NCBI GenBank assembly: GCA_016180945.1
Contig: JACPAG010000001.1
Span: 19,900 to 83,899, forward strand
Length of the DNA: 64,000 nt
Direction of reading: 5' to 3'
DNA from: Candidatus Aenigmatarchaeota archaeon
GTDB taxonomy: Archaea; Aenigmatarchaeota; Aenigmatarchaeia; GW2011-AR5
The notes beneath the pieces were generated by a model. It was not told the DNA's origin and made no database searches. It worked only from the letters and a program-made list of their open reading frames with translations. Of this stretch, positions 20,231 to 48,956 are shown one piece after another. Both the position numbers and the translations under genes were made by a program. Position 1 is the first letter of the stretch. The number at the start of each line of letters is the position of its first letter.

Positions 20231-21355
20231 TTACGACTGGACAACTAAAGTTTTTATTCGTGGCGACAGCTGGTAAACATATGCCCTGTCCCTCTGGGCC
20301 CGTTCCAAAAGTCCTTCTTGCAGCAGTCTTTTCGTGATGTTGTTCACGCTTCTGACTGCATGCTGCCTGGACTTGTATTTCGAAAGGTCCAGCATATTTG
20401 CGACCTCGCCGGGAGAACAGGATTTTTTGGCCAGTATGTCTATAATCCCTTTCTGCATGGGCGTCAGTTTCTCCAGCATGTCCAAAGAAACCTCCTTTTT
20501 GGGCGCAGCCTCTTTCCATGTAAGGTCTTCCGTTATGGTGTCCCGTCCTTTTTCTATCGCGGCCTTTATCAGGTCGTTGCAGTATCTTATAACCTCACGT
20601 GGAAAGCCGCCTGTTGATTCGTATATTGTATCGATAGTTTTGTCATCAAACAGCCCGAGACCCGTGCCGCCGACAGCCGCTATGCGTTTCTCCATCATTT
20701 CCCGCATTTCTTCTTTTGTTAGGGATAAGACCTCTACTTTCGCGGCTATCCGCTTTCTTAATGTCTCCAATTTATCCCTTATTTGCACCTCAAAAACAGG
20801 CAGCCCTGAAAGAACCAGAATCATGTTATCCACCTGGTCGCTTATAACGCGCAGCCATTCTAAAACATTCAGGTCAGACTCGTGGCATTCGTCGAGCATC
20901 ACGACAAGCGTTTTGCCGGAAAGCCTGCCGTTAAGGAATTTCGGCAGCTGGTGCAGGTTTTTTATGTTTTGCCATGGTAGATACCAAGGCTTGGGGAATT
21001 TATCCCTGAAAATATCAACAAATTCCTCAGCCTTCGAAGGCGGTTTGCCAATAAAAATATAGTCGTGCCTGTCAGGCAGATTGTCAGCTATCCATTTTAG
21101 CATGCTTGTTTTTCCCGATCCAGTAGGCCCTACAAGAAGCACGATTTTCTGCCTTTCTTCAATGGCGCTGATAAGAGAATTTACCTGGGTTTTATAACCC
21201 ACAAAAAGCGCCGGCGAAATATGAAAGGTAAAGGGATTGTTTTTCCATCCTCTTTTAGAAAACCATGCAAAATGGTCGTTTGTTTCGAGCATTTCCGGAC
21301 TGTTTTTTATGTTAGCGTCATTACCAGTCCCGCTATCGGGTTTTCCAGCTCCCAT
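20231..21355 (-). CDS. Orc1/Cdc6-related AAA+ ATPase with C-terminal winged helix
   Basis: Walker A LLVGPTGSGKTS, Walker B LVVMLDECH, GGFPREVIRYCN (compare Cdc6 GDARRALDLLR). C-terminal wHTH (GEVANMLDLSKYKSRQHAVRSVNNITKRLLQEGLLER). Adjacent to the TTCAC array. Confidence 0.75.
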   Translation of the reverse strand: MGAGKPDSGTGNDANIKNSPEMLETNDHFAWFSKRGWKNNPFTFHISPALFVGYKTQVNSLISAIEERQKIVLLVGPTGSGKTSMLKWIADNLPDRHDYIFIGKPPSKAEEFVDIFRDKFPKPWYLPWQNIKNLHQLPKFLNGRLSGKTLVVMLDECHESDLNVLEWLRVISDQVDNMILVLSGLPVFEVQIRDKLETLRKRIAAKVEVLSLTKEEMREMMEKRIAAVGGTGLGLFDDKTIDTIYESTGGFPREVIRYCNDLIKAAIEKGRDTITEDLTWKEAAPKKEVSLDMLEKLTPMQKGIIDILAKKSCSPGEVANMLDLSKYKSRQHAVRSVNNITKRLLQEGLLERAQRDRAYVYQLSPRIKTLVVQS

Positions 21356-31120: not shown

Positions 31121-32026
31121 ATGAAGAAACAGAATGGAACAGAAACAAGCTCATTTGGGACAAGCGGAAGATTCAATCACGATTCTTCTAAATTTTATTC
31201 AAGCAAGATGTACTCTGATACTTCTAAATCAAAATTAGACCACTCTCAAGAAAATCCTATTTCAGAAAAAATTATCAATAAAATATTCTGCAAATCAAGC
31301 GAAAAAATGGAAGAATTACCAGATAATAGCATTCATTTAATGATAACATCACCACCTTATAACGTAGGCAAAGAATATGATGAGAACCTTTCTATTGAAG
31401 ATTACAGAAGTTTACTAAAATCTGTAGTCAAAGAAGTACACAGAGTTCTTGTTGTCGGTGGTAGAGCATGCATTAATGTGGCGAATCTTGGAAGAAAACC
31501 ATACATTCCACTTCATAGTTTCATAATTGAAGATATGCTAAATCTAGGGTTTTTTATGCGTGGCGAAATTATTTGGAATAAGGGTTCAAGTGCTGGAACT
31601 TCCATGGCTTGGGGGAGTTGGTTATCGGCAACAAACCCTACCTTAAGAGATATACATGAATACATACTGATTTTTTCAAAAGGTAATAATGGACGTTTAA
31701 ATTTAGATAAAAAAGAAAGCACAATAACAAAAGAAGAATTTATGGAATTTACAAAAAGTGTTTGGTCTTTCCCTACTCAATCTGCACGGGCGGTAGGGCA
31801 TCCTGCACCATTCCCAATAGAATTACCATTGAGATTAATCAAGTTCTATACATTCAAAGGTGATGTGGTTTTAGACCCATTCGTGGGTAGTGGAACAACT
31901 GCGATAGCTGCCAGAAAATTAGAAAGGAAATATGTTGGATACGACATAAGCAAAGAATATTGCAAACTTGCAGAAACACGAATTAAAAAGGAATTTGCAC
32001 AGAAAACTCTCAGGGTTGCTGTCTAA
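31121..32026 (+). CDS. beta-class DNA methyltransferase (N4-cytosine or N6-adenine)
   Basis: Motif IV SPPY (LMITSPPYNVGKEYD) precedes motif I (LDPFVGSGTTAIAA). This order defines the beta class; SPPY is more typical of m4C enzymes. Confidence 0.88.
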   Translation: MKKQNGTETSSFGTSGRFNHDSSKFYSSKMYSDTSKSKLDHSQENPISEKIINKIFCKSSEKMEELPDNSIHLMITSPPYNVGKEYDENLSIEDYRSLLKSVVKEVHRVLVVGGRACINVANLGRKPYIPLHSFIIEDMLNLGFFMRGEIIWNKGSSAGTSMAWGSWLSATNPTLRDIHEYILIFSKGNNGRLNLDKKESTITKEEFMEFTKSVWSFPTQSARAVGHPAPFPIELPLRLIKFYTFKGDVVLDPFVGSGTTAIAARKLERKYVGYDISKEYCKLAETRIKKEFAQKTLRVAV

Positions 32027-32652
32027 TCATTCCACCTATCAACCCATCTTTTGTAAACATCATATTTTATGTCATCCTTGACCCAATTGATTGAGATTTT
32101 CAATGTTTCTTCATGCTCTATCATTTGTTTGATTGCTTCTTTGCTAAATTCAACACCTCTTGGATTCGTTCCTGCTTTTGGCATTTTGAGATATTTCTTA
32201 CGTCCTAACAGGTTAAATATCTCTTTCTGAACTTTAATCGGTATTAGGAAAAAACTGTCTTTATTTTTGCTCCACCATACTTGAACAAGAATAATATCAC
32301 ATTTCGGGTTGTAATTTTTGATAAATTTTCTTGAACTTTTTGCATCCACAGTCCAAACGGCTTTGACGCCACCATTTCCTGTTATCGTCTTTATCGATAC
32401 CCCTTTTCCATTAACTTTTACATCTATTTCTGGCTCTGTTGTTGGTATATCTGTGTCGACATTTTCTTCTCCAAATTTATGTATAAGTAGACCACCGATA
32501 ATCTTTTCTCTTAAAGAACCGACTTCCATACCGATTTTATTAGCCCTTGAACTCTCAATTTCGGCTATTCTGAACAATTTTGGTAATTTATTCTGAATCT
32601 TTGATTTGGTAAAGTTGTCTATGAAGAGTTTAGTCAAATTTGCTTCTGACAT
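32023..32652 (-). CDS. putative type II restriction endonuclease (PD-(D/E)xK-like)
   Basis: Convergent with the methyltransferase with a 4-nt overlap. Candidate catalytic stretch TEPEIDVKVNGKGVSIKT. Very AT-rich. Confidence 0.55.
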   Translation of the reverse strand: MSEANLTKLFIDNFTKSKIQNKLPKLFRIAEIESSRANKIGMEVGSLREKIIGGLLIHKFGEENVDTDIPTTEPEIDVKVNGKGVSIKTITGNGGVKAVWTVDAKSSRKFIKNYNPKCDIILVQVWWSKNKDSFFLIPIKVQKEIFNLLGRKKYLKMPKAGTNPRGVEFSKEAIKQMIEHEETLKISINWVKDDIKYDVYKRWVDRWND

Positions 32653-32753
32653 AAATTTTATTAATTTTTAGCGCTTAAATACCAACCAAAGAGTTTACAG
32701 AACCATTTTTAGTAAAAAGTAATGTTTAAAAATTCTGTTAACTATTAAAAATA

Positions 32754-34076
32754 ATGAAAAAGAACATCGATATTAACCAATTAATGGTAAATCCAAAAAA
32801 CTATCGTTTCGATCCGGTAGAAAATCAAAATGAAGCAATTGACTTGATGCTCGAAGAAAAGGAAGAAGAAATACTAAATTTGGCTAAACATATAGTAGAT
32901 CATGGACTAGATAAGGCAAAAGATTCTAGAGTCTTAGAAATAAAGAAAGACCTCTATCTTGTTCTTGATGGGAACAGAAGAGTAACAGCAATTAAATGCA
33001 CAACAGATCCTTCTTTAATAAAAAGTGATTCATTAAAAAGCAAATTTATCAATTTGAGAAAAGGGAAAGGAAAAATTCCAAATAAAGTTAATTGTTTCGT
33101 GTATAAAGATGAAAAAGATGCGGCAGAATGGATTAAACTTGATCATACTGGAAAGAATAGTGGAGTAGGTCAAGATCCTTGGGAAGCTGCGGGAAAGGAA
33201 AGGTTCGATTGGGATTTTGGCGGAAAACTTTCTCCTGCTATGCAGGCAATTAACCTATTTGAACATGAAACTAAACACGGGCTTAATAAGAAAAAACTTA
33301 AAATTTCTACCGTCAATCGTATAATTTCTAACCCAGAGTCTCGATCGTTTTTGGGGATAGAAATAAGTAATGGAGGAATCGTTTTAACTTCAACAAAGAG
33401 AGAGGTAATTGAGAGGTTAGACAAACTTTTCAATAAAATTATAATAGACGATGTTCCAGTTTCAGCTGTGTACCGCACTCCAGATGCAATTAAATTCATG
33501 GAAAATCTTTTTGGGTCTAAGCCTAAAATTGCCAGAACAAAAATATCTATTTCTCCAAAAGGAATTCCAAAAAAGAAAAGTAGGTCAAAGCGTACTTTTC
33601 CTAGATCTGGTAGCAGAAATTTTTTAATACCCGCAAGTTGTATTTTGCAAATTTATGAATCTAGAATTAATAACATATATCATGAATTAAGATCTTTGCC
33701 CTTAGATGTGGGAACCAATGCAGTAGCGGTTTTGTTTAGAGTTTTTTTAGAAACTGGTCTAGATCACTATGCTGAAAAATTTGGGTTTGCTTTTGGAACT
33801 AATTTTGGAACTAAAATAAAACTTGCAGGAAAAATTACAAAAATAACTGATGATTTAGAGAAAAGGGGTTATAAAAAAACTCAATTAAATAACATTAGAT
33901 CTGTAACGAGAAAAGGTAATGCAATCCTGTCAATTGATTACTTCCACGAATACGTACATTCTTTTAAAAACAACCCCACACCTATTGATCTAATATATAA
34001 ATGGGATAATCTTCAGGAATTTTTCGAAATACTTTGGGAAGAGATTTCAAAAAAAGAAAAAAGAGGCAAAAAATGA
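32754..34076 (+). CDS. ParB N-terminal (ParB/Srx-fold) domain protein with large uncharacterised C-terminal region
   Basis: IDINQLMVNPKNYRFD and LVLDGNRRVTAIK match the ParB-N boxes. The remaining ~330 aa are unassigned. The stop overlaps the next ATG (ATGA). Confidence 0.7.
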   Translation: MKKNIDINQLMVNPKNYRFDPVENQNEAIDLMLEEKEEEILNLAKHIVDHGLDKAKDSRVLEIKKDLYLVLDGNRRVTAIKCTTDPSLIKSDSLKSKFINLRKGKGKIPNKVNCFVYKDEKDAAEWIKLDHTGKNSGVGQDPWEAAGKERFDWDFGGKLSPAMQAINLFEHETKHGLNKKKLKISTVNRIISNPESRSFLGIEISNGGIVLTSTKREVIERLDKLFNKIIIDDVPVSAVYRTPDAIKFMENLFGSKPKIARTKISISPKGIPKKKSRSKRTFPRSGSRNFLIPASCILQIYESRINNIYHELRSLPLDVGTNAVAVLFRVFLETGLDHYAEKFGFAFGTNFGTKIKLAGKITKITDDLEKRGYKKTQLNNIRSVTRKGNAILSIDYFHEYVHSFKNNPTPIDLIYKWDNLQEFFEILWEEISKKEKRGKK

Positions 34077-34924
34077 AATACTATTCGCCGCTTAGATATC
34101 CAGGAGGAAAAGGAAAAATAACGTCCTATATGAAAGAAATAATTAAAAAAAATTCTTTGGTGGGGGGTATCTATGTTGAACCTTATGCGGGTGGAGCCGC
34201 AGTAGCCATTTCACTTCTACTGGATGAGTATGTAGATAAAATCATTATAAATGACATAGATTATTCGATATATGCATTTTGGTATTCTATGATAAATAAA
34301 ACTAAAGAACTTTGTCAATTAATAGAAAAAACGCCTATAACAATAACAGAATGGAAAAAACAAAAGAAAATTCAATCTATAAAGAATTGTGATTTACTCA
34401 CTTTAGGATTTTCTACATTATTTCTGAATCGAACAAATAGATCTGGAATATTAAAAAATGCAGGACCAATAGGTGGGTTTGAACAAAAAGGAAAGTGGAA
34501 ACTAAATGTTAGATATAGCAAATCTGACATTATAGAACGCATCAAACGTATTAGTCTTTATAAAAATCGTATTGAGATATATAATTACGATGCAATTGAA
34601 TTAATTAAAACTATTAACAAGTCATTACCTTCGAATACTTTGATATATTTTGATCCTCCTTATTATATGAAAGGCAAAGAATTGTACTTTAATTATTACA
34701 GACGTAAGAATCATGAAGAAATAAGTAATAAAATAAAGAAAATTAATAAACATAGATGGATTGTTACATACGATAATGTAGCATCGATAAGAAAGTTATA
34801 CAAATTGTATAGGAAGAAAAAATTCTTGCTTAATTATAGTGCAGGTAGATCTAATAGAGGTGAGGAAGTTATGATTTTTTCAAATAACATTAATGTTGTC
34901 GGCCGCCGTATATTGGATAGATAA
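34073..34924 (+). CDS. Dam-family (D12 class) N6-adenine DNA methyltransferase
   Basis: MKYYSPLRYPGGKGKI N-terminus (motif X/I region) and IYFDPPYY motif IV. Confidence 0.88.
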   Translation: MKYYSPLRYPGGKGKITSYMKEIIKKNSLVGGIYVEPYAGGAAVAISLLLDEYVDKIIINDIDYSIYAFWYSMINKTKELCQLIEKTPITITEWKKQKKIQSIKNCDLLTLGFSTLFLNRTNRSGILKNAGPIGGFEQKGKWKLNVRYSKSDIIERIKRISLYKNRIEIYNYDAIELIKTINKSLPSNTLIYFDPPYYMKGKELYFNYYRRKNHEEISNKIKKINKHRWIVTYDNVASIRKLYKLYRKKKFLLNYSAGRSNRGEEVMIFSNNINVVGRRILDR

Positions 34925-42632: not shown

Positions 42633-43418
42633 TTAAAACGCCGCCTCCAGCCACGCGCCGATCGCGATAAGAAACTCTGCCGAGAACAGCAGTATCGCCG
42701 AATCCTTGAATATTTTTTTGAATTCCTTGCTCATAAATCGCTCTCTTATTATGCCCACGGACAGGATTCCGCCGGCCAGCCCTGCAACAAAATACGCCAG
42801 AATTTCAGGTATCCCGTGCAGTGCTATGCTGCTGAGGCTCAGCGGAACGCCGTACAGCAGAGCTCCTTTATCCAGGCCTGCCTGCATGAAATTGCCGGCG
42901 TAAACGCCGATGACGCTTGCATTCCACGCCAGAATAAATATCGCGCCTGCGCCGAACATCGTCGACAGTATGAACATCAATAACATCACCTGCGAATTGT
43001 TCACGAAAAACGTCGAGAACGCGCCGGACCCGGAAGCAAGGCCGGAAAATCCTCTCAGCGTCTCTGCCTGCAGCGAAAACGTTTCCTTCGGCATGAAAAT
43101 AAATGAGAACGCGACCGCGACAGTTACGCCCAGAAAAAAAGAACTGAAAACAAAGATGATTTTTTTGTGCCTTGAAAACAGGTTCCCTTTCACGCCTCTG
43201 GCCGCCTCGTCCTCTGCCTCTTCCTCTATCTCGAACAGCTTCTGGAAGAACGGCACGAAAACAATCGTTATCAGCGCTATAGAAAGCAGGGACGCCTGCT
43301 TAGGAAACAGCTGGTTGGCAAAATACATCGATATGACAGAATAAATAAGCGCTATGAAGAAAACGTGGGCTGGTTTGTCTTCGGCGTTCTTCGGATTCAT
43401 TATGGATTCGAGCACCAT
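42633..43418 (-). CDS. SpoIIM/DUF95-family membrane protein
   Basis: 261 aa, polytopic. ALHGIPEILAYFVAGLAGG motif. Confidence 0.7.
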   Translation of the reverse strand: MVLESIMNPKNAEDKPAHVFFIALIYSVISMYFANQLFPKQASLLSIALITIVFVPFFQKLFEIEEEAEDEAARGVKGNLFSRHKKIIFVFSSFFLGVTVAVAFSFIFMPKETFSLQAETLRGFSGLASGSGAFSTFFVNNSQVMLLMFILSTMFGAGAIFILAWNASVIGVYAGNFMQAGLDKGALLYGVPLSLSSIALHGIPEILAYFVAGLAGGILSVGIIRERFMSKEFKKIFKDSAILLFSAEFLIAIGAWLEAAF

Positions 43419-43576
43419 AATTATTCTTGTTGCTGCCGGAATAAAAGGCTTTTATTTCTTCGGCTTTGCATCCAAAGTCCATTCTGCAACTAAATTCGGA
43501 AAGTTGCAATTAAGGTCGGAAAGTGTTACATAAGATTCCGTTTTTAAGGTTTCCTTCTATAATTCTTTTGTTCATT

Positions 43577-44686
43577 ATGGAAACAGAAACGCCTTTTTCT
43601 GAGCTTCCAGAAGCATTAGTAGAAGAGATGCTGAATAAGTCAGATGAATTGGGCAGAGACTTATCAAACACATTCAAAGATATAAATGATAAAAAGTCAG
43701 AGGTCAGAAAAAAGCTCTATGAACTTGAATATCTGAAGAAGGATAGCGATATAATAACGACACCATCGTACCCTACAACTTGTGGTGTTGATGGCTCTTA
43801 TGGCGGTGAAAATCTTTTATCAACCGACATAACTGCTATGGCAAGTGTAGCGGTTGAAGGACTTATACCGCCAAAGGAAGTTAAATATTGGGAAAACCCC
43901 CACTATATTTGTAAAATTCTTACATTACAACACAGCGATGCCACAAGCTTGGTTGCAAGAGCTATTATGATGACTATGGAATTGGAGTTAGCAACAAAAT
44001 CACCTCATGACGTTGTGTTTATGGATGGTTCTTTAACCACACCATTTATTTATTTCAATCAAGCACTAAGCAGAATAAAAGACGTTTCACCAGAACTTTC
44101 AAGTTATTTTATAGAAAGATTAGGATTAACATTGGATTCTTATATTGAGGTATTAGCTGCTGTAAGAAGTGATAAAATATATTCAAGCATACCAAAGTAT
44201 ACAAGCAGGAAGGAAATAGCGAAACTTGTTGGTCTAAATAATTACGAAGATAGGGGTCTTCTCTCTTTCATACTTGAACCTTCAGAGTTTGTTGGGCCAA
44301 TGCCGTTAGAACAACCGAATCAAGAATGGCACATAAATAACCCATTACAATTCAGCATATTATTTGATAAAATTATAAGTTCTCTGAAAGAAATCTATGT
44401 CATATACTATAGGCCTTTTAGTCACATCCCAGCTTTGCGCATAGAGATGTCTAAAAATATAGCTCTGAATAATAATAGATTATCAATACTGCTTGAATCG
44501 GTAAAATTACAATGTGTAGGTGGTGGCATTATGGAACCATATCCTTTGTATTTGGCTGATAGAATGGTAAAGCACTTGGGGACAGCTATTCCAGCTATAC
44601 GTAAGACAATGACTCAAGAAATGGCTGGAGAATGGGGAGATGACGTAACAAGCTTATATTTAGCAATGCACGGGTACAGAACGTGA
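43577..44686 (+). CDS. NurA-like nuclease
   Basis: Motif series CGVDGSYGGE ... MMTMELELA ... VVFMDGSL matches the NurA D/E/D catalytic layout. Met at 43577 chosen. AT-rich. Confidence 0.7.
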   Translation: METETPFSELPEALVEEMLNKSDELGRDLSNTFKDINDKKSEVRKKLYELEYLKKDSDIITTPSYPTTCGVDGSYGGENLLSTDITAMASVAVEGLIPPKEVKYWENPHYICKILTLQHSDATSLVARAIMMTMELELATKSPHDVVFMDGSLTTPFIYFNQALSRIKDVSPELSSYFIERLGLTLDSYIEVLAAVRSDKIYSSIPKYTSRKEIAKLVGLNNYEDRGLLSFILEPSEFVGPMPLEQPNQEWHINNPLQFSILFDKIISSLKEIYVIYYRPFSHIPALRIEMSKNIALNNNRLSILLESVKLQCVGGGIMEPYPLYLADRMVKHLGTAIPAIRKTMTQEMAGEWGDDVTSLYLAMHGYRT

Positions 44687-44690
44687 TTAT

Positions 44691-46454
44691 ATGGAAAATG
44701 AAGAAATAGACGTAAACAAAGCTTTTGATAAAGCGGAGAAGATAGGTGTTATTGGTTCTCCATCCTCAACTAATCGATTAACTATTGATATTCTTGGAAC
44801 TGCAATGAATAAGAAACTTGTTGGCACTCTATGTGTATTCAAACATATGCAGGACGGAAGAGAGCATTTTTCATTAGGCCAAATTACAGAAATTCAATTA
44901 AAGAATGTTTGGAGTGAAGACCCCACAATGAGAGGTCTAATAAGACAAAAGGGTAGGGTAGACCCTATAACAGAAAAACAAGATACACACACTGCGAGTA
45001 TGATAGTAAGCTCGGTATTTAGTAAAGCCGATTCTGTAATGGGTCAGAGCATCTTAGGAACAGTACCTTCAACGGGGAGTCCTATAAAATTAATCAATAA
45101 TGATATTATGAAAGGACTTTTAGTTAATCATCAAAATGAATTATCTTATCTTGGGCGAGCTTATGGTTCTGATATTTTAATGCCTATGTGGTTCAAGCAT
45201 TTTGGCAAAGAAACTGGTGGGGTTGGAGAAGCTTACCATATAGGGATATTTGGTAAAACAGGTTCTGGAAAATCTGTATTCGCAAAAATGGCAATGCTTG
45301 GTTATGCAAGACATCCATCTATGTCTATGTTCATTATTGACCCGCAAGGCGAATTTGCGAAAGAAATTAAAAGAGATACAAAATTAAAGGGAATATTGGA
45401 AAAGAAATTGCACAGAGAAGTTAAAATATACGATTTACATAATCTTGTGATGACTGGATGGGAACTTTTTAAAAAGACCTTAGTTAATTCAGAGTTCTTT
45501 GATAAACTAACAATTTGGGAAGAAATAAAACCCAGAGCTGCAGAAGTCGTAGTCAATATTTTGAGAGCAAAAATGGGTGGGCAAGCACAACTTGGACAAC
45601 ATACAGAAATACCACCATATAAAGCGTTTGAACAAGCAGCTTTTGATCGCGTATGGAATGCCTTATCACGGGATGATATATGGACTAAGATTTACTACGC
45701 CAAAGATTCAAGAGAAAGAGTACAGTTACAATATGCTGATGCAAATAAAGATGAATTCTTCGAGATATGGAAACAAGTAGCAAATCTATTCAAATATGAA
45801 GGCCGTTCAGGTGTTAAGAAAATAATTGATTTAGTCAATGAAGTTGTAAGCAAAGAAAATGAGGAGAATAGGCCTATTACTATTATAGATTTATCCGAAT
45901 CAGAAATACCAGACGATATATTATGGAACGAAAATATAAGTTTCGTTGTCATAAAAGAACTTTTGGATAAATTAAAGTCTGAGGCCGAAAAAGAGTTTAA
46001 GAAAGAAAGAAATTTAAACTGCTTGGTTGTAATAGATGAAGCTCATAGATTAGCACCAAGAGAAAGAAAAGAGAACGAAAATTTAGAAGTACTTAAGGCA
46101 ACATTTATTGATGCTGTAAGGACTACGAGAAAGTTTGGTCTTGGTTGGATGTTTATTAGTCAAACACTATCAAGCTTAGATAGAGGTATAGTGGAACAAT
46201 TACGAGCTTATGTCTTTGGTTTTGGTTTAGGATGGGGTATAGAACTACAAGCTCTGAAAGAATTGATTGGTGGTAATCGTGATGCTATAAGCTTGTACCA
46301 ATTATTTAATGATCCTCAAAGCTCATTTGGAGAAAAACAATACCCATTTATGATGGTCGGGCCTCTGTCGCCATTATCATTTTCAAGTATACCTTTATTC
46401 GTTACGGCTTTGAATTTTCCTGACGAATTTTTATCTATTAATTTTTCTGAATAG
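44691..46454 (+). CDS. HerA-like (DUF87) hexameric ATPase/translocase
   Basis: Starts 4 nt after the nurA-like stop. N-terminal barrel-like region (IGVIGSPSSTNRLTIDILG ... GTLCVF). Walker A IFGKTGSGKS. Walker B CLVVIDEAHRLAP. Confidence 0.8.
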   Translation: MENEEIDVNKAFDKAEKIGVIGSPSSTNRLTIDILGTAMNKKLVGTLCVFKHMQDGREHFSLGQITEIQLKNVWSEDPTMRGLIRQKGRVDPITEKQDTHTASMIVSSVFSKADSVMGQSILGTVPSTGSPIKLINNDIMKGLLVNHQNELSYLGRAYGSDILMPMWFKHFGKETGGVGEAYHIGIFGKTGSGKSVFAKMAMLGYARHPSMSMFIIDPQGEFAKEIKRDTKLKGILEKKLHREVKIYDLHNLVMTGWELFKKTLVNSEFFDKLTIWEEIKPRAAEVVVNILRAKMGGQAQLGQHTEIPPYKAFEQAAFDRVWNALSRDDIWTKIYYAKDSRERVQLQYADANKDEFFEIWKQVANLFKYEGRSGVKKIIDLVNEVVSKENEENRPITIIDLSESEIPDDILWNENISFVVIKELLDKLKSEAEKEFKKERNLNCLVVIDEAHRLAPRERKENENLEVLKATFIDAVRTTRKFGLGWMFISQTLSSLDRGIVEQLRAYVFGFGLGWGIELQALKELIGGNRDAISLYQLFNDPQSSFGEKQYPFMMVGPLSPLSFSSIPLFVTALNFPDEFLSINFSE

Positions 46455-47591
46455 TGAATATGAAGAATTATCAAAAGACTTGTAAGTTTCGTCTCTCTCA
46501 GATCGTGGAATTACCCATCTATTCAACATAAAAGAAGCATTATATCTTACATCATTTCTTAGAGTCTTTGCATTCTTGTTCTCCTCTAACAAAAGTTGTT
46601 TCCAATTTTTGACTAAAGGAGCTAAAAATAACTCTCTTTTTATACCATGATATAACAAATCATTTGGTAATCCCAATTTTTTAAGCGCCTCTCTAATAAC
46701 TACTCTCTTATTTCGTGGCCCTGTTCCCCATTTGCTGTTTTTACCACTACATCCAGATTTTTTAGCTAACATAGATAAATTCTTGTATTCTCCATTGGAA
46801 AAATGAAATTCCCCAGAGCCTTTTGTCCAACCAACATGAAAAAATTCTGGCCCATCAGGAATTTTGATCCTATCGTACATAGAACTCTTACCAAAAGCAG
46901 AAGAAGTTGTCACAGCCAATAATTTCCCATAAAATTTCTTACCACTTATTAAGGATTTTTTCCCATGATATTTTTTACGAAAATCTTTGGCAACTTTATC
47001 AGATGTTATAAGAGAACTGACTAATTTTCCACTTAGTATTAAATTATATGGCGGAACTGCTCCTATTACAAACCCGTCCATTATATGTTTTAAATTATTT
47101 GCTTTAGTTTTACTGTTCCAGCCGATAAAACTATCTCTATCTTTTAAGGCATATACAGGATCGGCTAATCCTATTATTCCTATTAGTTTATTATTGTATT
47201 CATCAATAACTAAATATCTCAACCTTCTTCCATAACCAGCAGATATAGGAATAGACCAATGCAATTTAACCCAATTGAATAAATTAGATTCTTCTTTATT
47301 TTTAGAATCAAAGCAAACTAACTTGGGCGATATTTCTTCAGGTCTAATTTCATTTCCATTAGCGATATATTTCAAGATAAAATGTTTATCATATTTTTGT
47401 ATAAATTCCTTATTCTTGAGTAATAAATGATTCACAGAAAAATTATTCAATCTTCTCAACGACGGCTTTGTATAGTTTTTAGGCTTTAATACACCTTTCT
47501 TGTAAACAAATCCTTGGTCTCTAAGTAATGAGATTAATTTATGTTTTGTGCGAGTTCTTCTCTGTTTAACAGAAATATATTGAAATGACAT
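46431..47591 (-). CDS. DUF4338 (Druantia DruA-like) domain protein
   Basis: HWSIPISAGYGRRLRYLVIDEYNNKLIGIIGLADPVYALKDRDSFIGW matches my recollection of the DUF4338 core. The 3' end overlaps the herA-like gene by 24 nt (convergent). Confidence 0.6.
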   Translation of the reverse strand: MSFQYISVKQRRTRTKHKLISLLRDQGFVYKKGVLKPKNYTKPSLRRLNNFSVNHLLLKNKEFIQKYDKHFILKYIANGNEIRPEEISPKLVCFDSKNKEESNLFNWVKLHWSIPISAGYGRRLRYLVIDEYNNKLIGIIGLADPVYALKDRDSFIGWNSKTKANNLKHIMDGFVIGAVPPYNLILSGKLVSSLITSDKVAKDFRKKYHGKKSLISGKKFYGKLLAVTTSSAFGKSSMYDRIKIPDGPEFFHVGWTKGSGEFHFSNGEYKNLSMLAKKSGCSGKNSKWGTGPRNKRVVIREALKKLGLPNDLLYHGIKRELFLAPLVKNWKQLLLEENKNAKTLRNDVRYNASFMLNRWVIPRSERDETYKSFDNSSYSLFRKINR

Positions 47592-47903
47592 TATAATCTA
47601 TTAGTACAAAACTATAAGGCCTTGTGTTTTTACCCTTAAGGCCTTTTTTCAAAATAAGCTAAATTTGCCTTACTTTTTCCCTTTCACATAGTTCCTAATA
47701 AACTCTTCCAGAACAGAAGTAGCAGGTCTTTTTCTCCTGCAAAGTCTTCACCCTGAATTTCTGCAATCAAAGTTAGCAGGATGCAACTAAAGTGGTGGTG
47801 AGAGGTCACTTTAGATGCAAAGCTTATTTCTTCCTAAGGTTCGACATTTTCTATGGCTGTCAGTTACTTTAAAAGTTTTCCATTCTTATTCGTAGTGTTG
47901 AAT

Positions 47904-48956
47904 ATGAACGAAATAGGAATTACCGGTTACGGTTGTTACATACCGCGCTTCCGCATAAAAGTCGAGGAGATAGCGAAGGTCTGGGGTCAGGAAGCGGAAA
48001 ACATAAAGCGCGGCCTTTTAGTCGAGGAAAAAAGCGTGCCTGACGTGGACGAGGATACGATAACAATAAGCGTCGAAGCCGCCAGAAACGCGCTGGCGCG
48101 CGCAAACATAGGCGCTGAAAAAATCGGCGCGCTATTTATAGGCAGTGAATCGCACCCGTATGCTGTCAAGCCGTCCGGAACTGTGGTGGCAGAAGCGATC
48201 GGCGCATCGCCGCGAATTCTGGTCGCTGATTTTGAGTTTGCCTGTAAAGCCGGCACAGCAGCCATCCAGTGCTGCTACGGCCTGGTCAAGTCCAATGAAA
48301 TAGAATACGGTTTGGCAATTGGTTCTGATACGTCGCAGGGCAGGCCTGGCGATGCCCTGGAATATACTGCATCAGCCGGCGGCGGCGCGTTTATAATCGG
48401 CAAAAATCCAGTCGCGTCCATAGAAGGCATGTTCTCTTACACGACGGATACGCCTGATTTTTGGCGCCGCGAGGGCGAAGACTTCCCGCGCCACGGCGCG
48501 CGCTTTACAGGCGAGCCTGCCTATTTCAGGCATGTCGTTGAAGCCACAAAAGGGTTGATGACAAAATTATCTTTAAGGTCTGGCGATTTTGACTATGCCG
48601 TATTCCATACCCCGAACGGAAAATTCCCGCTGCGCGCCGCCCAGTTGCTGGGGTTTGAAAAAGAAAAGGTCCTGCCGGGCCTTATTGTAACAAAAATCGG
48701 GAATGCGTATTCAGGCGCGAGCCTGCTCGCCCTTTGCAATATTTTAGACGCTGTTGCGAAACCCGGTCAGCGTATTCTTCTTACCTCATACGGTTCGGGC
48801 GCCGGCAGCGATTCGTTCTCGCTGCTTGTAACCGACCGGCTGTTAGAAGCCCGCGATGCAGCGCCGAAAACAGATTTTTATGTTAACCGGAAATCTTACG
48901 TGACATACGGCGAATACGTGAAGATGAGGAAAAAACTGAAGGGTGTAACGGAATGA
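47904..48956 (+). CDS. archaeal HMG-CoA synthase
   Basis: [29 protein letters not shown]-terminus. Catalytic Cys context [13 protein letters not shown]. Confidence 0.9.

Follow-up and report, generated by a model that had tools for sequence, protein, structure and literature searches.

Since 2018 Druantia has counted as a validated anti-phage system. Its type I reportedly consists of DruABCDE, and type II is said to contain a methyltransferase, DruM. HerA and NurA are classically assigned to double-strand-break resection. In their complex, a HerA hexamer and a NurA dimer translocate from a DNA end at the expense of ATP and degrade both strands, and the authors of the latest HerA-NurA structure favour an antiviral role over end resection (PMC12977600). 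In Pyrobaculum, nurA-csm6-herA clusters adjoin CRISPR arrays (cited in PMC12977600). A further group, with Sir2-HerA, DUF4297-HerA and TdpAB, has a hexameric HerA-family ATPase encoded beside an effector in a compact mobile cassette. The locus described here brings parts of these systems together. It lies in a stretch of 64,000 nucleotides (nt) of Candidatus Aenigmatarchaeota contig JACPAG010000001.1, which was analysed as a whole and is called the window below. The genes of a NurA-like nuclease, a HerA/FtsK-family ATPase and a DruA protein occupy an island of low G+C (GC) content in it, as follows (aa, amino acids; bp, base pairs).

43577-44686, + strand: NurA-like nuclease gene, 369 aa; alternative GTG start at 43523
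44691-46454, + strand: HerA/FtsK-family ATPase gene, 587 aa; begins 4 nt after nurA
46431-47591, - strand: DruA (DUF4338) gene, 386 aa; convergent, with a 24-nt overlap with herA
43419-47845: low-GC island of 4,427 bp, present or absent between sampled contigs
42633-43418, - strand: SpoIIM-like membrane-protein gene, between hmgA and the island

NurA, HerA and DruA almost certainly constitute a conserved, mobile, three-gene functional module. Judged from its sequences and their context, this triad is quite probably an anti-invader defence in which NurA-HerA would be the effector. The cassette is most likely an undescribed HerA-driven nuclease defence cassette with a Druantia-type partner. The defence reading is founded on the mobility of the cassette, its presence or absence between near-identical contigs, its foreign composition, its link to Druantia, the in-line insertion of defence-type genes and the precedent of the HerA-effector systems.

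The three reading frames and the 24-nt convergent overlap reported in the original prediction, which had been made from the DNA sequence alone, are borne out by the translations of the open reading frames (ORFs). All motifs listed there (GVDGS, MELE, FMDGSL, GKTGSGKS, VVIDEAH, GYGRRLRYLV and DRDSFIGW) are present. The prediction had also placed the block, as an insertion, between hmgA and the HMG-CoA synthase gene. The insertion is supported by the foreign GC content and by the absence of the block from two contigs; to the placing one omitted detail is to be added, the SpoIIM-like gene beside hmgA. The island is flanked by hmgA and the SpoIIM-like gene on one side and by the HMG-CoA synthase gene on the other. 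Across approximately 43,400-47,850 the GC content drops to 0.28-0.40, from 0.48-0.56 outside. The 1-kilobase (kb) segments of the island have a mean of 0.341, against a background of 0.450 ± 0.040 in which 2.8% of segments are equally low, and against 0.434 for the entire window. The GC content of third codon positions (GC3) is 0.23-0.30 in the three island genes and 0.56-0.63 in eight host genes, which include hmgA, the SpoIIM-like gene, HMG-CoA synthase, thiolase, RadA and PolB. The block is therefore compositionally distinct, as had been claimed.

The same locus was recovered in other sequencing runs by exact-protein look-up of the SpoIIM-like gene. Two of the loci (L147 and L148) contain the island at 99.95% identity. 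Two others, L149 and L150, each from another run again, have a SpoIIM-like gene that is 99.56% identical, but lack 43419-47845. At their junction, the SpoIIM start codon (43418) plus one G is directly joined to window position 47846. The island was thus acquired recently: some of the sampled contigs have it and others do not.

Comparison with Druantia and the HerA-based systems

The window cassette and Druantia type I have the signature first gene, DruA (DUF4338), in common, and in both of them DruA accompanies an ATP-driven DNA motor. The two differ in that the triad is without DruB, DruC and DruE, has no DruD among its three genes, and has NurA-HerA as the proposed effector instead. Hidden Markov models (HMMs) of DruB, DruC and DruE, modelled on those of the canonical loci L125/L126, yield no match in the window and, in the triad loci, only a distant DruE-like gene in L029. 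DruE, the large DUF1998 helicase of Druantia, has about 1,700-1,850 aa, while the longest ORF in the window has 1,066 aa. Because the DruB, DruC and DruE models find nothing and no ORF reaches the length of DruE, the cassette is not Druantia type I. A further difference is that triad-linked DruA clusters apart from the canonical cluster, with 32-37% identity. Canonical loci with DruA and DruBCDE were recovered as controls (L125/L126 and pNWAT01). The literature search, outside which most subscription journals and the recent DefenseFinder/PADLOC releases lie, found no paper linking DUF4338/DruA with NurA or NurA with Druantia. It also found none on the mechanism of type I Druantia and almost nothing on the function of DruA. 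Since no paper joins DUF4338 with NurA and no PADLOC v2 model matches the window NurA, the claim that the triad is not a described system holds as far as it can be checked.

The proposed assignment of the three proteins to NurA, HerA and DUF4338 is upheld by Pfam scores that all exceed the cutoffs. For NurA (PF09376) the margin is narrow (E = 1.6e-5, 25.0 bits, cutoff 21); many homologues of the window NurA have precomputed PF09376 matches. The ATPase matches DUF87/HerA (4.8e-12, 46.9 bits, cutoff 23.2) and the PADLOC HerA model (2.6e-18). DruA is matched most strongly, both by Pfam (2.2e-92, 309.8 bits, cutoff 27) and by PADLOC DruA1 (1.3e-105, 351.8 bits). Putative catalytic residues are preserved: across 60 triads, NurA keeps its GVDGS Asp, MELE Glu, MDGS Asp and ADRMVKH motif with little or no change, and the Walker A (GKTGSGKS) and Walker B (IDEAH) motifs of HerA are invariant. 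For the barrel-like N-terminus that the prediction had seen in HerA, Pfam gives no support: residues 1-180, where a HAS-barrel would be expected, are highly conserved and have no Pfam match at E<=1. The NurA start is likely the ATG at 43577, which is backed by an identical 369-aa database protein; the promoter-like AT-rich stretch on its 5' side is fully conserved in a relative with 89% identity.

With the HerA-NurA end-processing complex of Sulfolobus, Pyrococcus/Thermococcus and Deinococcus, the cassette shares the close succession of nurA and herA, 4 nt apart, a NurA domain with conserved acidic motifs and a HerA/FtsK ATPase with Walker A and B motifs. It differs in that the window sequences are very divergent and the cassette is mobile, patchy and DruA-linked. 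No PDB chain is found at E<=1 with the profile of the NurA clade, which places this clade far from all solved NurA structures. In contrast to the herA-mre11-rad50-nurA operon, the cassette is not linked to mre11 or rad50, and models of repair HerA equivalogs score far below their cutoffs. The earlier statement that no mre11/rad50 lie nearby is confirmed: the 64-kb window has no Rad50-sized candidate, its ORFs of >=800 aa being AlaRS, CarB and PolB only, and no such conserved partner occurs among 147 neighbours in related loci.

Among solved structures, the HerA-effector systems provide the closest likeness for the ATPase. Like Sir2-HerA, DUF4297-HerA and TdpAB, the window has a HerA-family ATPase next to a putative effector in a compact mobile cassette. 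The profile of the window HerA finds 9c1m, 8wiv, 8xau, 9x1l, 4d2i, 8ziq and TdpA (8wet) in the PDB, with weak matches confined to the C-terminal half of its ATPase domain. The best of them (9c1m, 8wiv, 8xau, 8ziq and 8wet) and the PADLOC HerA match point to HerA-effector systems and TdpA, and the HerA-effector complexes outscore the repair HerA 4d2i (1.4e-3). The candidate effector here differs from theirs (Sir2, DUF4297 or TdpB) in being a NurA-type nuclease of RNase H fold, and DruA is present as a third conserved gene; the cassette is neither Sir2-HerA nor DUF4297-HerA. The window HerA also scores only 19-29 bits with the anti-phage NCBIfam equivalogs (HerA_antiphage, 19 against a cutoff of 800; HerA_antiphage_2, 29 against 850). 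The values for the repair equivalogs are similar (HerA_Thermprot, 29.1 against 800; helicase_HerA, 19.9 against 970). The Pyrobaculum nurA-csm6-herA clusters would resemble the cassette in having a NurA-HerA pair in an immunity context with a third, sensor-type gene. This gene encodes a CARF/HEPN Csm6 in Pyrobaculum and DruA here, and no CRISPR association was seen here. In L013, L022 and L090 a CARF-like protein and a Ser/Thr-kinase-ORC/Cdc6-like (STK-ORC) ATPase are added to the triad. In its action the cassette would come closest to the HerA-effector systems, and its first gene is one that Druantia also has.

Distribution, linkage and partners of the three genes

A seed scan for the NurA clade in 185,579 species-representative genomes gave 109 confirmed hits, of which 80 were kept and tabulated; as only two peptide patterns were scanned for, 109 is a minimum. 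Every ORF in the loci was scored with HMMs built for the three clades. DruA is present in 60 of the 80 loci, while 11 loci with adequate flanks are without it and nine are too short, the share among loci with informative flanks being 85%. In the other direction, 58 metagenome loci were seeded with DruA and 46 are informative. NurA/HerA lie beside DruA in 33 of these 46; five have only the STK-ORC ATPase and the CARF-like protein, five are canonical Druantia type I (DruA with proteins of 553, 664-699, 363 and 1,722 aa), and three have none of these partners. The co-occurrence of the three families as neighbours is thus recovered from both sides, and the original prediction withstood this test as well as the other two proposed with it, on HMM support and on composition. 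Because both searches were seeded with peptide patterns of the clade, the linkage fractions describe this sequence neighbourhood rather than all NurA or DUF4338 proteins. A class of loci with DruA only was considered and rejected for many of its members, in which neighbours of 370 and 610 aa are a second, strongly divergent NurA/HerA clade. This clade also pairs with DruA and scores 27.8-32.7 bits with Pfam NurA and 63-69 bits with DUF87.

The gene order varies. In about 55 loci the order is DruA>NurA>HerA in a tightly packed operon, five of them with extra genes in-line. These loci belong mainly to Chloroflexota, with others in Nitrospirota, Acidobacteriota, Planctomycetota, Armatimonadota, Bacillota, Zixibacteria, a Gloeomargarita cyanobacterium and a few archaea. 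The order NurA>HerA>DruA is found in five loci (Halobacteria, Methanomicrobiales, Bathyarchaeota, a spirochaete and Desulfovirgula). The convergent form of the window recurs in L001-L004, L088, L103 and L135, with the same overlap in L001-L004. The pairwise distances of the three proteins in the 60 complete triads are correlated (NurA-HerA 0.86, NurA-DruA 0.80, HerA-DruA 0.69; Mantel 0/999), which shows long-term joint inheritance, to which shared ancestry contributes. The arrangement in the window, with DruA on the opposite strand and its own promoter region, could be taken to mean that DruA landed by chance beside NurA-HerA and that the three genes are functionally unrelated. The neighbourhood census has already refuted this view, which retains practically no probability: the adjacency recurs in >90 independent loci, in both domains, in three gene orders and with co-divergence, and the second NurA/HerA clade adjoins DruA as well.

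The NurA and HerA proteins are 45-60% identical across archaeal and bacterial phyla. A cassette copy with 89% identity to that of the window (L003, L004 and L146) stands elsewhere, beside genes for S17e, Nop5, fibrillarin and an aminoacyl-tRNA synthetase, and a copy with 64-70% identity (L001 and L002) stands beside an IS4-type transposase. No relatives of the triad were found among 2.9 million viral contigs of IMG/VR, and the window NurA clade is absent from 72,556 plasmids, which contain distant NurA hits and canonical Druantia DruA only; carriage by viruses or plasmids was rejected on these grounds.

Some copies are degraded (L006/L008 5803-7095, L055, L019, L025 and L046). In a Methanosarcinales metagenome-assembled genome HerA is internally inverted, and elsewhere NurA, HerA or DruA is split into two ORFs; these could be real pseudogenes or assembly errors. 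Double copies of the NurA-HerA pair or the triad occur in Promethearchaeota 9R3_44 (L017 and L025) and in Gemmatales 03V1_S199 (L057 and L061). Those of the Gemmatales genome lie on ~3-kb contigs, which is what repeated or strain-variable DNA would give.

This distribution bears on whether the cassette belongs to housekeeping DNA repair. It would then be a stand-alone HerA-NurA end-resection machine, as in Deinococcus/Thermus and archaea, with DruA as an accessory repair or regulatory factor. The classical assignment of HerA-NurA to double-strand-break resection agrees with such a role, as do the largely housekeeping neighbours of the triad and the archaea that keep the pair without DruA. The window, moreover, is a core region of an archaeal chromosome, with AlaRS, CarAB, RadA, a primase-like Toprim protein, Hjc, mevalonate-pathway genes, Cdc6 and PolB around the island. 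Nevertheless, a repair function seems very improbable in view of the foreign composition of the island and its absence from contigs whose flanking gene is 99.6% identical. The patchy distribution (at least 109 confirmed hits in the 185,579 genomes), the occurrence of one clade in unrelated phyla at 45-60% identity and the existence of degraded and double copies also argue against it. Further, there is no mre11/rad50 linkage, the NCBIfam repair-HerA equivalogs, whose cutoffs are 800-970, give 20-29 bits, the pair is joined by a Druantia protein, and the genes found in-line are TmtA-like or STK-ORC/CARF-like.

No conserved fourth gene accompanies the triad, as 147 immediately adjacent genes fall into 136 clusters. 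A methyltransferase as fourth gene, which would have made the operon resemble restriction-modification (R-M) systems, was rejected since adjacent genes do not cluster and methyltransferases are simply the most frequent family nearby (5 of 149). The cassette does not lie inside dense defence islands, its flanks being mostly housekeeping genes. In two loci a TmtA-like sacsin-HATPase/NOV_C protein is encoded in-line between DruA and NurA (L028 6839-9967 and L036 2769-5930; PADLOC TmtA 3.7e-98). Other in-line insertions are a pentapeptide-repeat protein (L023 5817-8111) and two proteins of 707 and 173 aa (L024 7337-9980); in L022 the STK-ORC and CARF-like pair is inserted between DruA and NurA. 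This pair represents a third partnership of DruA. It consists of an STK-ORC ATPase of ~850 aa and a CARF-like (HFX_2341_N) protein of ~370 aa, and joins DruA with or without NurA-HerA in the loci below; no description of the partnership was found in the literature.

L091 5654-11098; L115 9722-14786; L117; L144; L112: STK-ORC/CARF-like partnership
L013 12880-17722; L022 783-5613; L090: further loci of this partnership

DruA and the proposed mechanism

An AlphaFold2 model of DruA from an alignment of 118 sequences has a mean local confidence (pLDDT) of 90.3 and a predicted template-modelling score (pTM) of 0.88; an earlier model from 13 sequences (pLDDT 56) was discarded. The top 50 PDB fold matches of the model, though weak in score, are all acetyltransferases of the GNAT, MYST or p300 type, including the RNA cytidine acetyltransferase TmcA. 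These matches agree with the published description of DUF4338 as a GNAT-like domain (PMC10853773). Sequence-profile searches of solved structures with DruA or NurA gave nothing useful. About 45 residues of DruA vary little or not at all between the triad-linked and the canonical proteins. In 111 sequences these include W112, P115, G121, R122, D130, R152, G177, P180-P181-Y182, G188-K189 and Y208, followed by S231, G234, S236, Y239, R241, G254, G258, G260, G289, R319 and R363. They are retained whatever the partner, canonical Druantia included. The invariant G177, P180-P181-Y182 and G188-K189 occupy the beta4-alpha3 position, where the classical acetyl-CoA loop would stand.

At least four clusters can be told apart among the DruA sequences; that of canonical Druantia-I is separated, at 32-37% identity, from three clusters that are paired with NurA-HerA. 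The cluster of the window DruA also holds the DruAs of the second NurA/HerA clade and of the STK-ORC/CARF-like module. In the surveyed loci, its members stand beside NurA-HerA or the STK-ORC/CARF-like pair and never beside DruB-E. The nearest relatives of the window NurA and HerA are in loci with DruA from a different cluster, implying that the triad modules have been shuffled.

Several viral entries also resemble DruA. The model has strong structural similarity to BFVD entries A0A3G4ZXG3 (Faunusvirus), A0A5K0UAJ3 (Yasminevirus), A0A3G4ZRA1 (Dasosvirus) and A0A6J5SK47 (a Caudovirales fragment), all uncharacterised, with E values of 5.7e-17 to 9e-8 and a query-normalised template-modelling (TM) score of up to 0.64. 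PHROG 19197 matches DruA at 6e-11. These matches in giant-virus bins and one tailed-phage fragment could be viral DruA homologues or binning contamination.

If the cassette acts in defence, its target would be viral or plasmid DNA. The HerA hexamer and the NurA dimer would use ATP to draw in the invading DNA at a free end and break down both of its strands, thus serving as the effector, and gene context would make DruA the specificity or control subunit. Such a part for DruA is suggested by its constant presence beside three different DNA-motor modules. Since the same putative active-site residues are kept with all three partner types, DruA may serve as a shared front-end for several DNA-motor back-ends, namely NurA-HerA, DruB-E and the kinase-ORC/CARF-like pair. 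It is a speculative suggestion that DruA is an acyl-transferase acting on a self mark, an invader protein or the effector. DruA might then mark self, on DNA or protein, or sense or modify a component of the invader or the effector, and so license or restrain the nuclease.

A more far-reaching version is doubtful, with perhaps a modest chance of being right: DruA would be the specificity arm of Druantia, an acyl-transferase that writes or reads a self/non-self mark and is a portable front-end for at least three unrelated back-ends. If true, DruA would fill the role that DruM has in type II Druantia, the mark being on DNA or a DNA-bound protein. The triad would then be a minimal acylation-based R-M-like system whose effector has solved homologues, and the substrate of DruA and the logic of Druantia would be directly testable in vitro.

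Several observations weigh against these readings. The defence role is drawn from context only. The NurA assignment has a weak Pfam score, and the sequence profile detects no solved NurA. The linkage percentages come from searches seeded with short peptide patterns of this clade. The 11 loci without DruA, mostly from Bathyarchaeota, Asgard archaea and Nitrososphaerota, retain the same NurA-HerA clade, which means that the pair can persist alone. DruA in the window is transcribed as a unit of its own, convergently. Housekeeping genes make up most of the triad's flanks, where a DNA methyltransferase (5 of 149 neighbours) is the one defence-type gene that recurs. The fold matches of DruA to acetyltransferases are weak (E 0.01-0.14, target-normalised TM <= 0.48), and PPY...GK stands in place of the classical acetyl-CoA loop Q/RxxGxG/A.

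The triad shows that DruA is not tied to DruB-E and has an equally conserved partnership with NurA-HerA, which is among the best understood DNA-degrading motors. Three proteins are few enough for the system to be reconstituted, and the role of DruA could be read as a change in a known nuclease or ATPase activity. With a role in defence, an RNase H-like NurA nuclease would be added to the effectors of HerA-driven immunity, and this theme would be extended to archaea. The triad would likewise support the recent suggestions of an antiviral role of HerA-NurA (PMC12977600). There are also consequences for annotation. The tested PADLOC v2 models match no NurA component, and pipelines label triad DruAs 'Druantia protein DruA'; such labels in the absence of a Druantia system could inflate Druantia counts in archaea and thermophiles. 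NCBI names P0161, P0170 and P0187, which are 50-52% identical to the window DruA, 'Druantia anti-phage system protein DruA'.

Island ends and surroundings

The ends of the island carry the following repeats.

43420-43429 and 47846-47855: imperfect 10-nt direct repeats bounding the island, ATTATTCTTG and ATTTTCTATG
43452-43461, + strand: left copy of the 10-nt direct repeat TTATTTCTTC, one base outside the left inverted-repeat arm
47824-47833, + strand: right copy of TTATTTCTTC, identical to the left copy and abutting the right inverted-repeat arm
43463-43478, + strand: left arm of the 16-nt inverted repeat, GCTTTGCATCCAAAGT, complementary to 47808-47823 at 15/16 positions
47808-47823, - strand: right arm of the 16-nt inverted repeat
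43467, 43485 and 43505 (43467-43516), + strand: three direct copies of the 12-nt motif TGCAWYYAARKT, also written TGCAAYTAAAGT, 61-110 nt upstream of the NurA ATG
47762 (+), 47782 (+) and 47808 (-) (47762-47819): three more 12-nt motif copies, lying 171-232 nt upstream of the DruA ATG

The pattern of the 16-nt inverted repeat has two sites in 64 kb, the two island ends, as compared with an expectation of 0.10. With a 15/16 inverted repeat and a perfect TTATTTCTTC repeat, the architecture of the ends looks like that of a transposon with terminal inverted repeats and a flanking target-site duplication. The 12-nt motif has seven copies in the window, six of them at the island ends, against 0.68 expected, for a pattern that was partly derived from the same copies; the last two copies at the right end form a palindrome able to make a 13-bp hairpin. 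In L146 the left triplet has the same spacing (18, 20) and the same distance of 110 nt to the NurA ATG. An alternative is that the arrays are operators co-regulating both convergent transcription units. Another interpretation, in which the end motifs are host promoter elements split by the insertion, was initially based on a degenerate motif pattern that is missing from related islands; it was dropped, as the left triplet is conserved in L146 with C at position 5.

These ends raise the question of whether the genes serve the propagation or maintenance of a mobile element, through addiction or the processing of element DNA, rather than host defence. The element in the window would be a unit of 4,362 bp within the 16-nt inverted repeats plus the 10-nt duplication. 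The inverted repeat coincides precisely with the GC boundaries and has the perfect direct repeat next to it, a combination with a probability of ~1e-5 by chance according to our own estimate. Each island end has three subterminal copies of the 12-nt motif, and homology to L146 begins exactly at the left arm. Outside the window, an IS4-type DDE transposase adjoins the trio in L001, many copies are on short contigs, and some genomes have two copies. NurA and DDE transposases both have an RNase H-like fold. Nevertheless, service to an element alone remains unlikely, if somewhat less so than a repair function. The island contains NurA, HerA and DruA only, with no transposase or integrase. What the island-less allele lacks exceeds the repeat-bounded unit by 65 nt, and this allele is therefore not a precise empty site. 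The 89% relative L003/L004, whose homology to the window stops near 47,670, has neither the right-end array upstream of DruA nor right-end repeats. Flanking inverted repeats at 53 other triad loci are no better than in the control, for which reason the triad as a generally terminal-inverted-repeat-bounded transposon was rejected. The lack of the triad in viral contigs and of the NurA clade in plasmids also speaks against this explanation, and carriage by a mobile element is fully compatible with a defence cassette.

In the island-less contigs, the part beyond window position 47905 (L149 1-39 and L150 1-29, in locus orientation) diverges fully from the window exactly at the likely HMG-CoA synthase start, after ...GTGTTGAATAT, which suggests a second rearrangement or a variant N-terminus. 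Integration linked to a tRNA was rejected, as no tRNA was found in the window, L001, L003, L004 or L146. A search of the island for known RNAs gave only a sub-threshold match to C0299 inside herA. Scans for sigma-70 promoters and terminators stayed at the level of shuffled sequence, the bacterial sigma-70 model being unsuited to an archaeon.

Elsewhere in the core region, the window encodes a 374-aa ATPase of the AAA_22/ATPase_2 type (20231-21355, - strand), in which the Pfam match covers the ATPase domain only. A second low-GC island is located at 31121-34924, with a GC content of 0.29-0.35 and a GC3 of 0.23-0.31. An N6/N4 DNA methyltransferase (31121-32026, + strand) is accompanied there by a ThaI-family restriction endonuclease (32023-32652, - strand), and an unannotated ORF of 440 aa (32754-34076, + strand), which may be a new endonuclease, overlaps a Dam-class methyltransferase (34034-34924, + strand). 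This second island probably comprises two type II R-M systems. The composition signature of the NurA-HerA-DruA island matches that of this R-M island 9 kb away.

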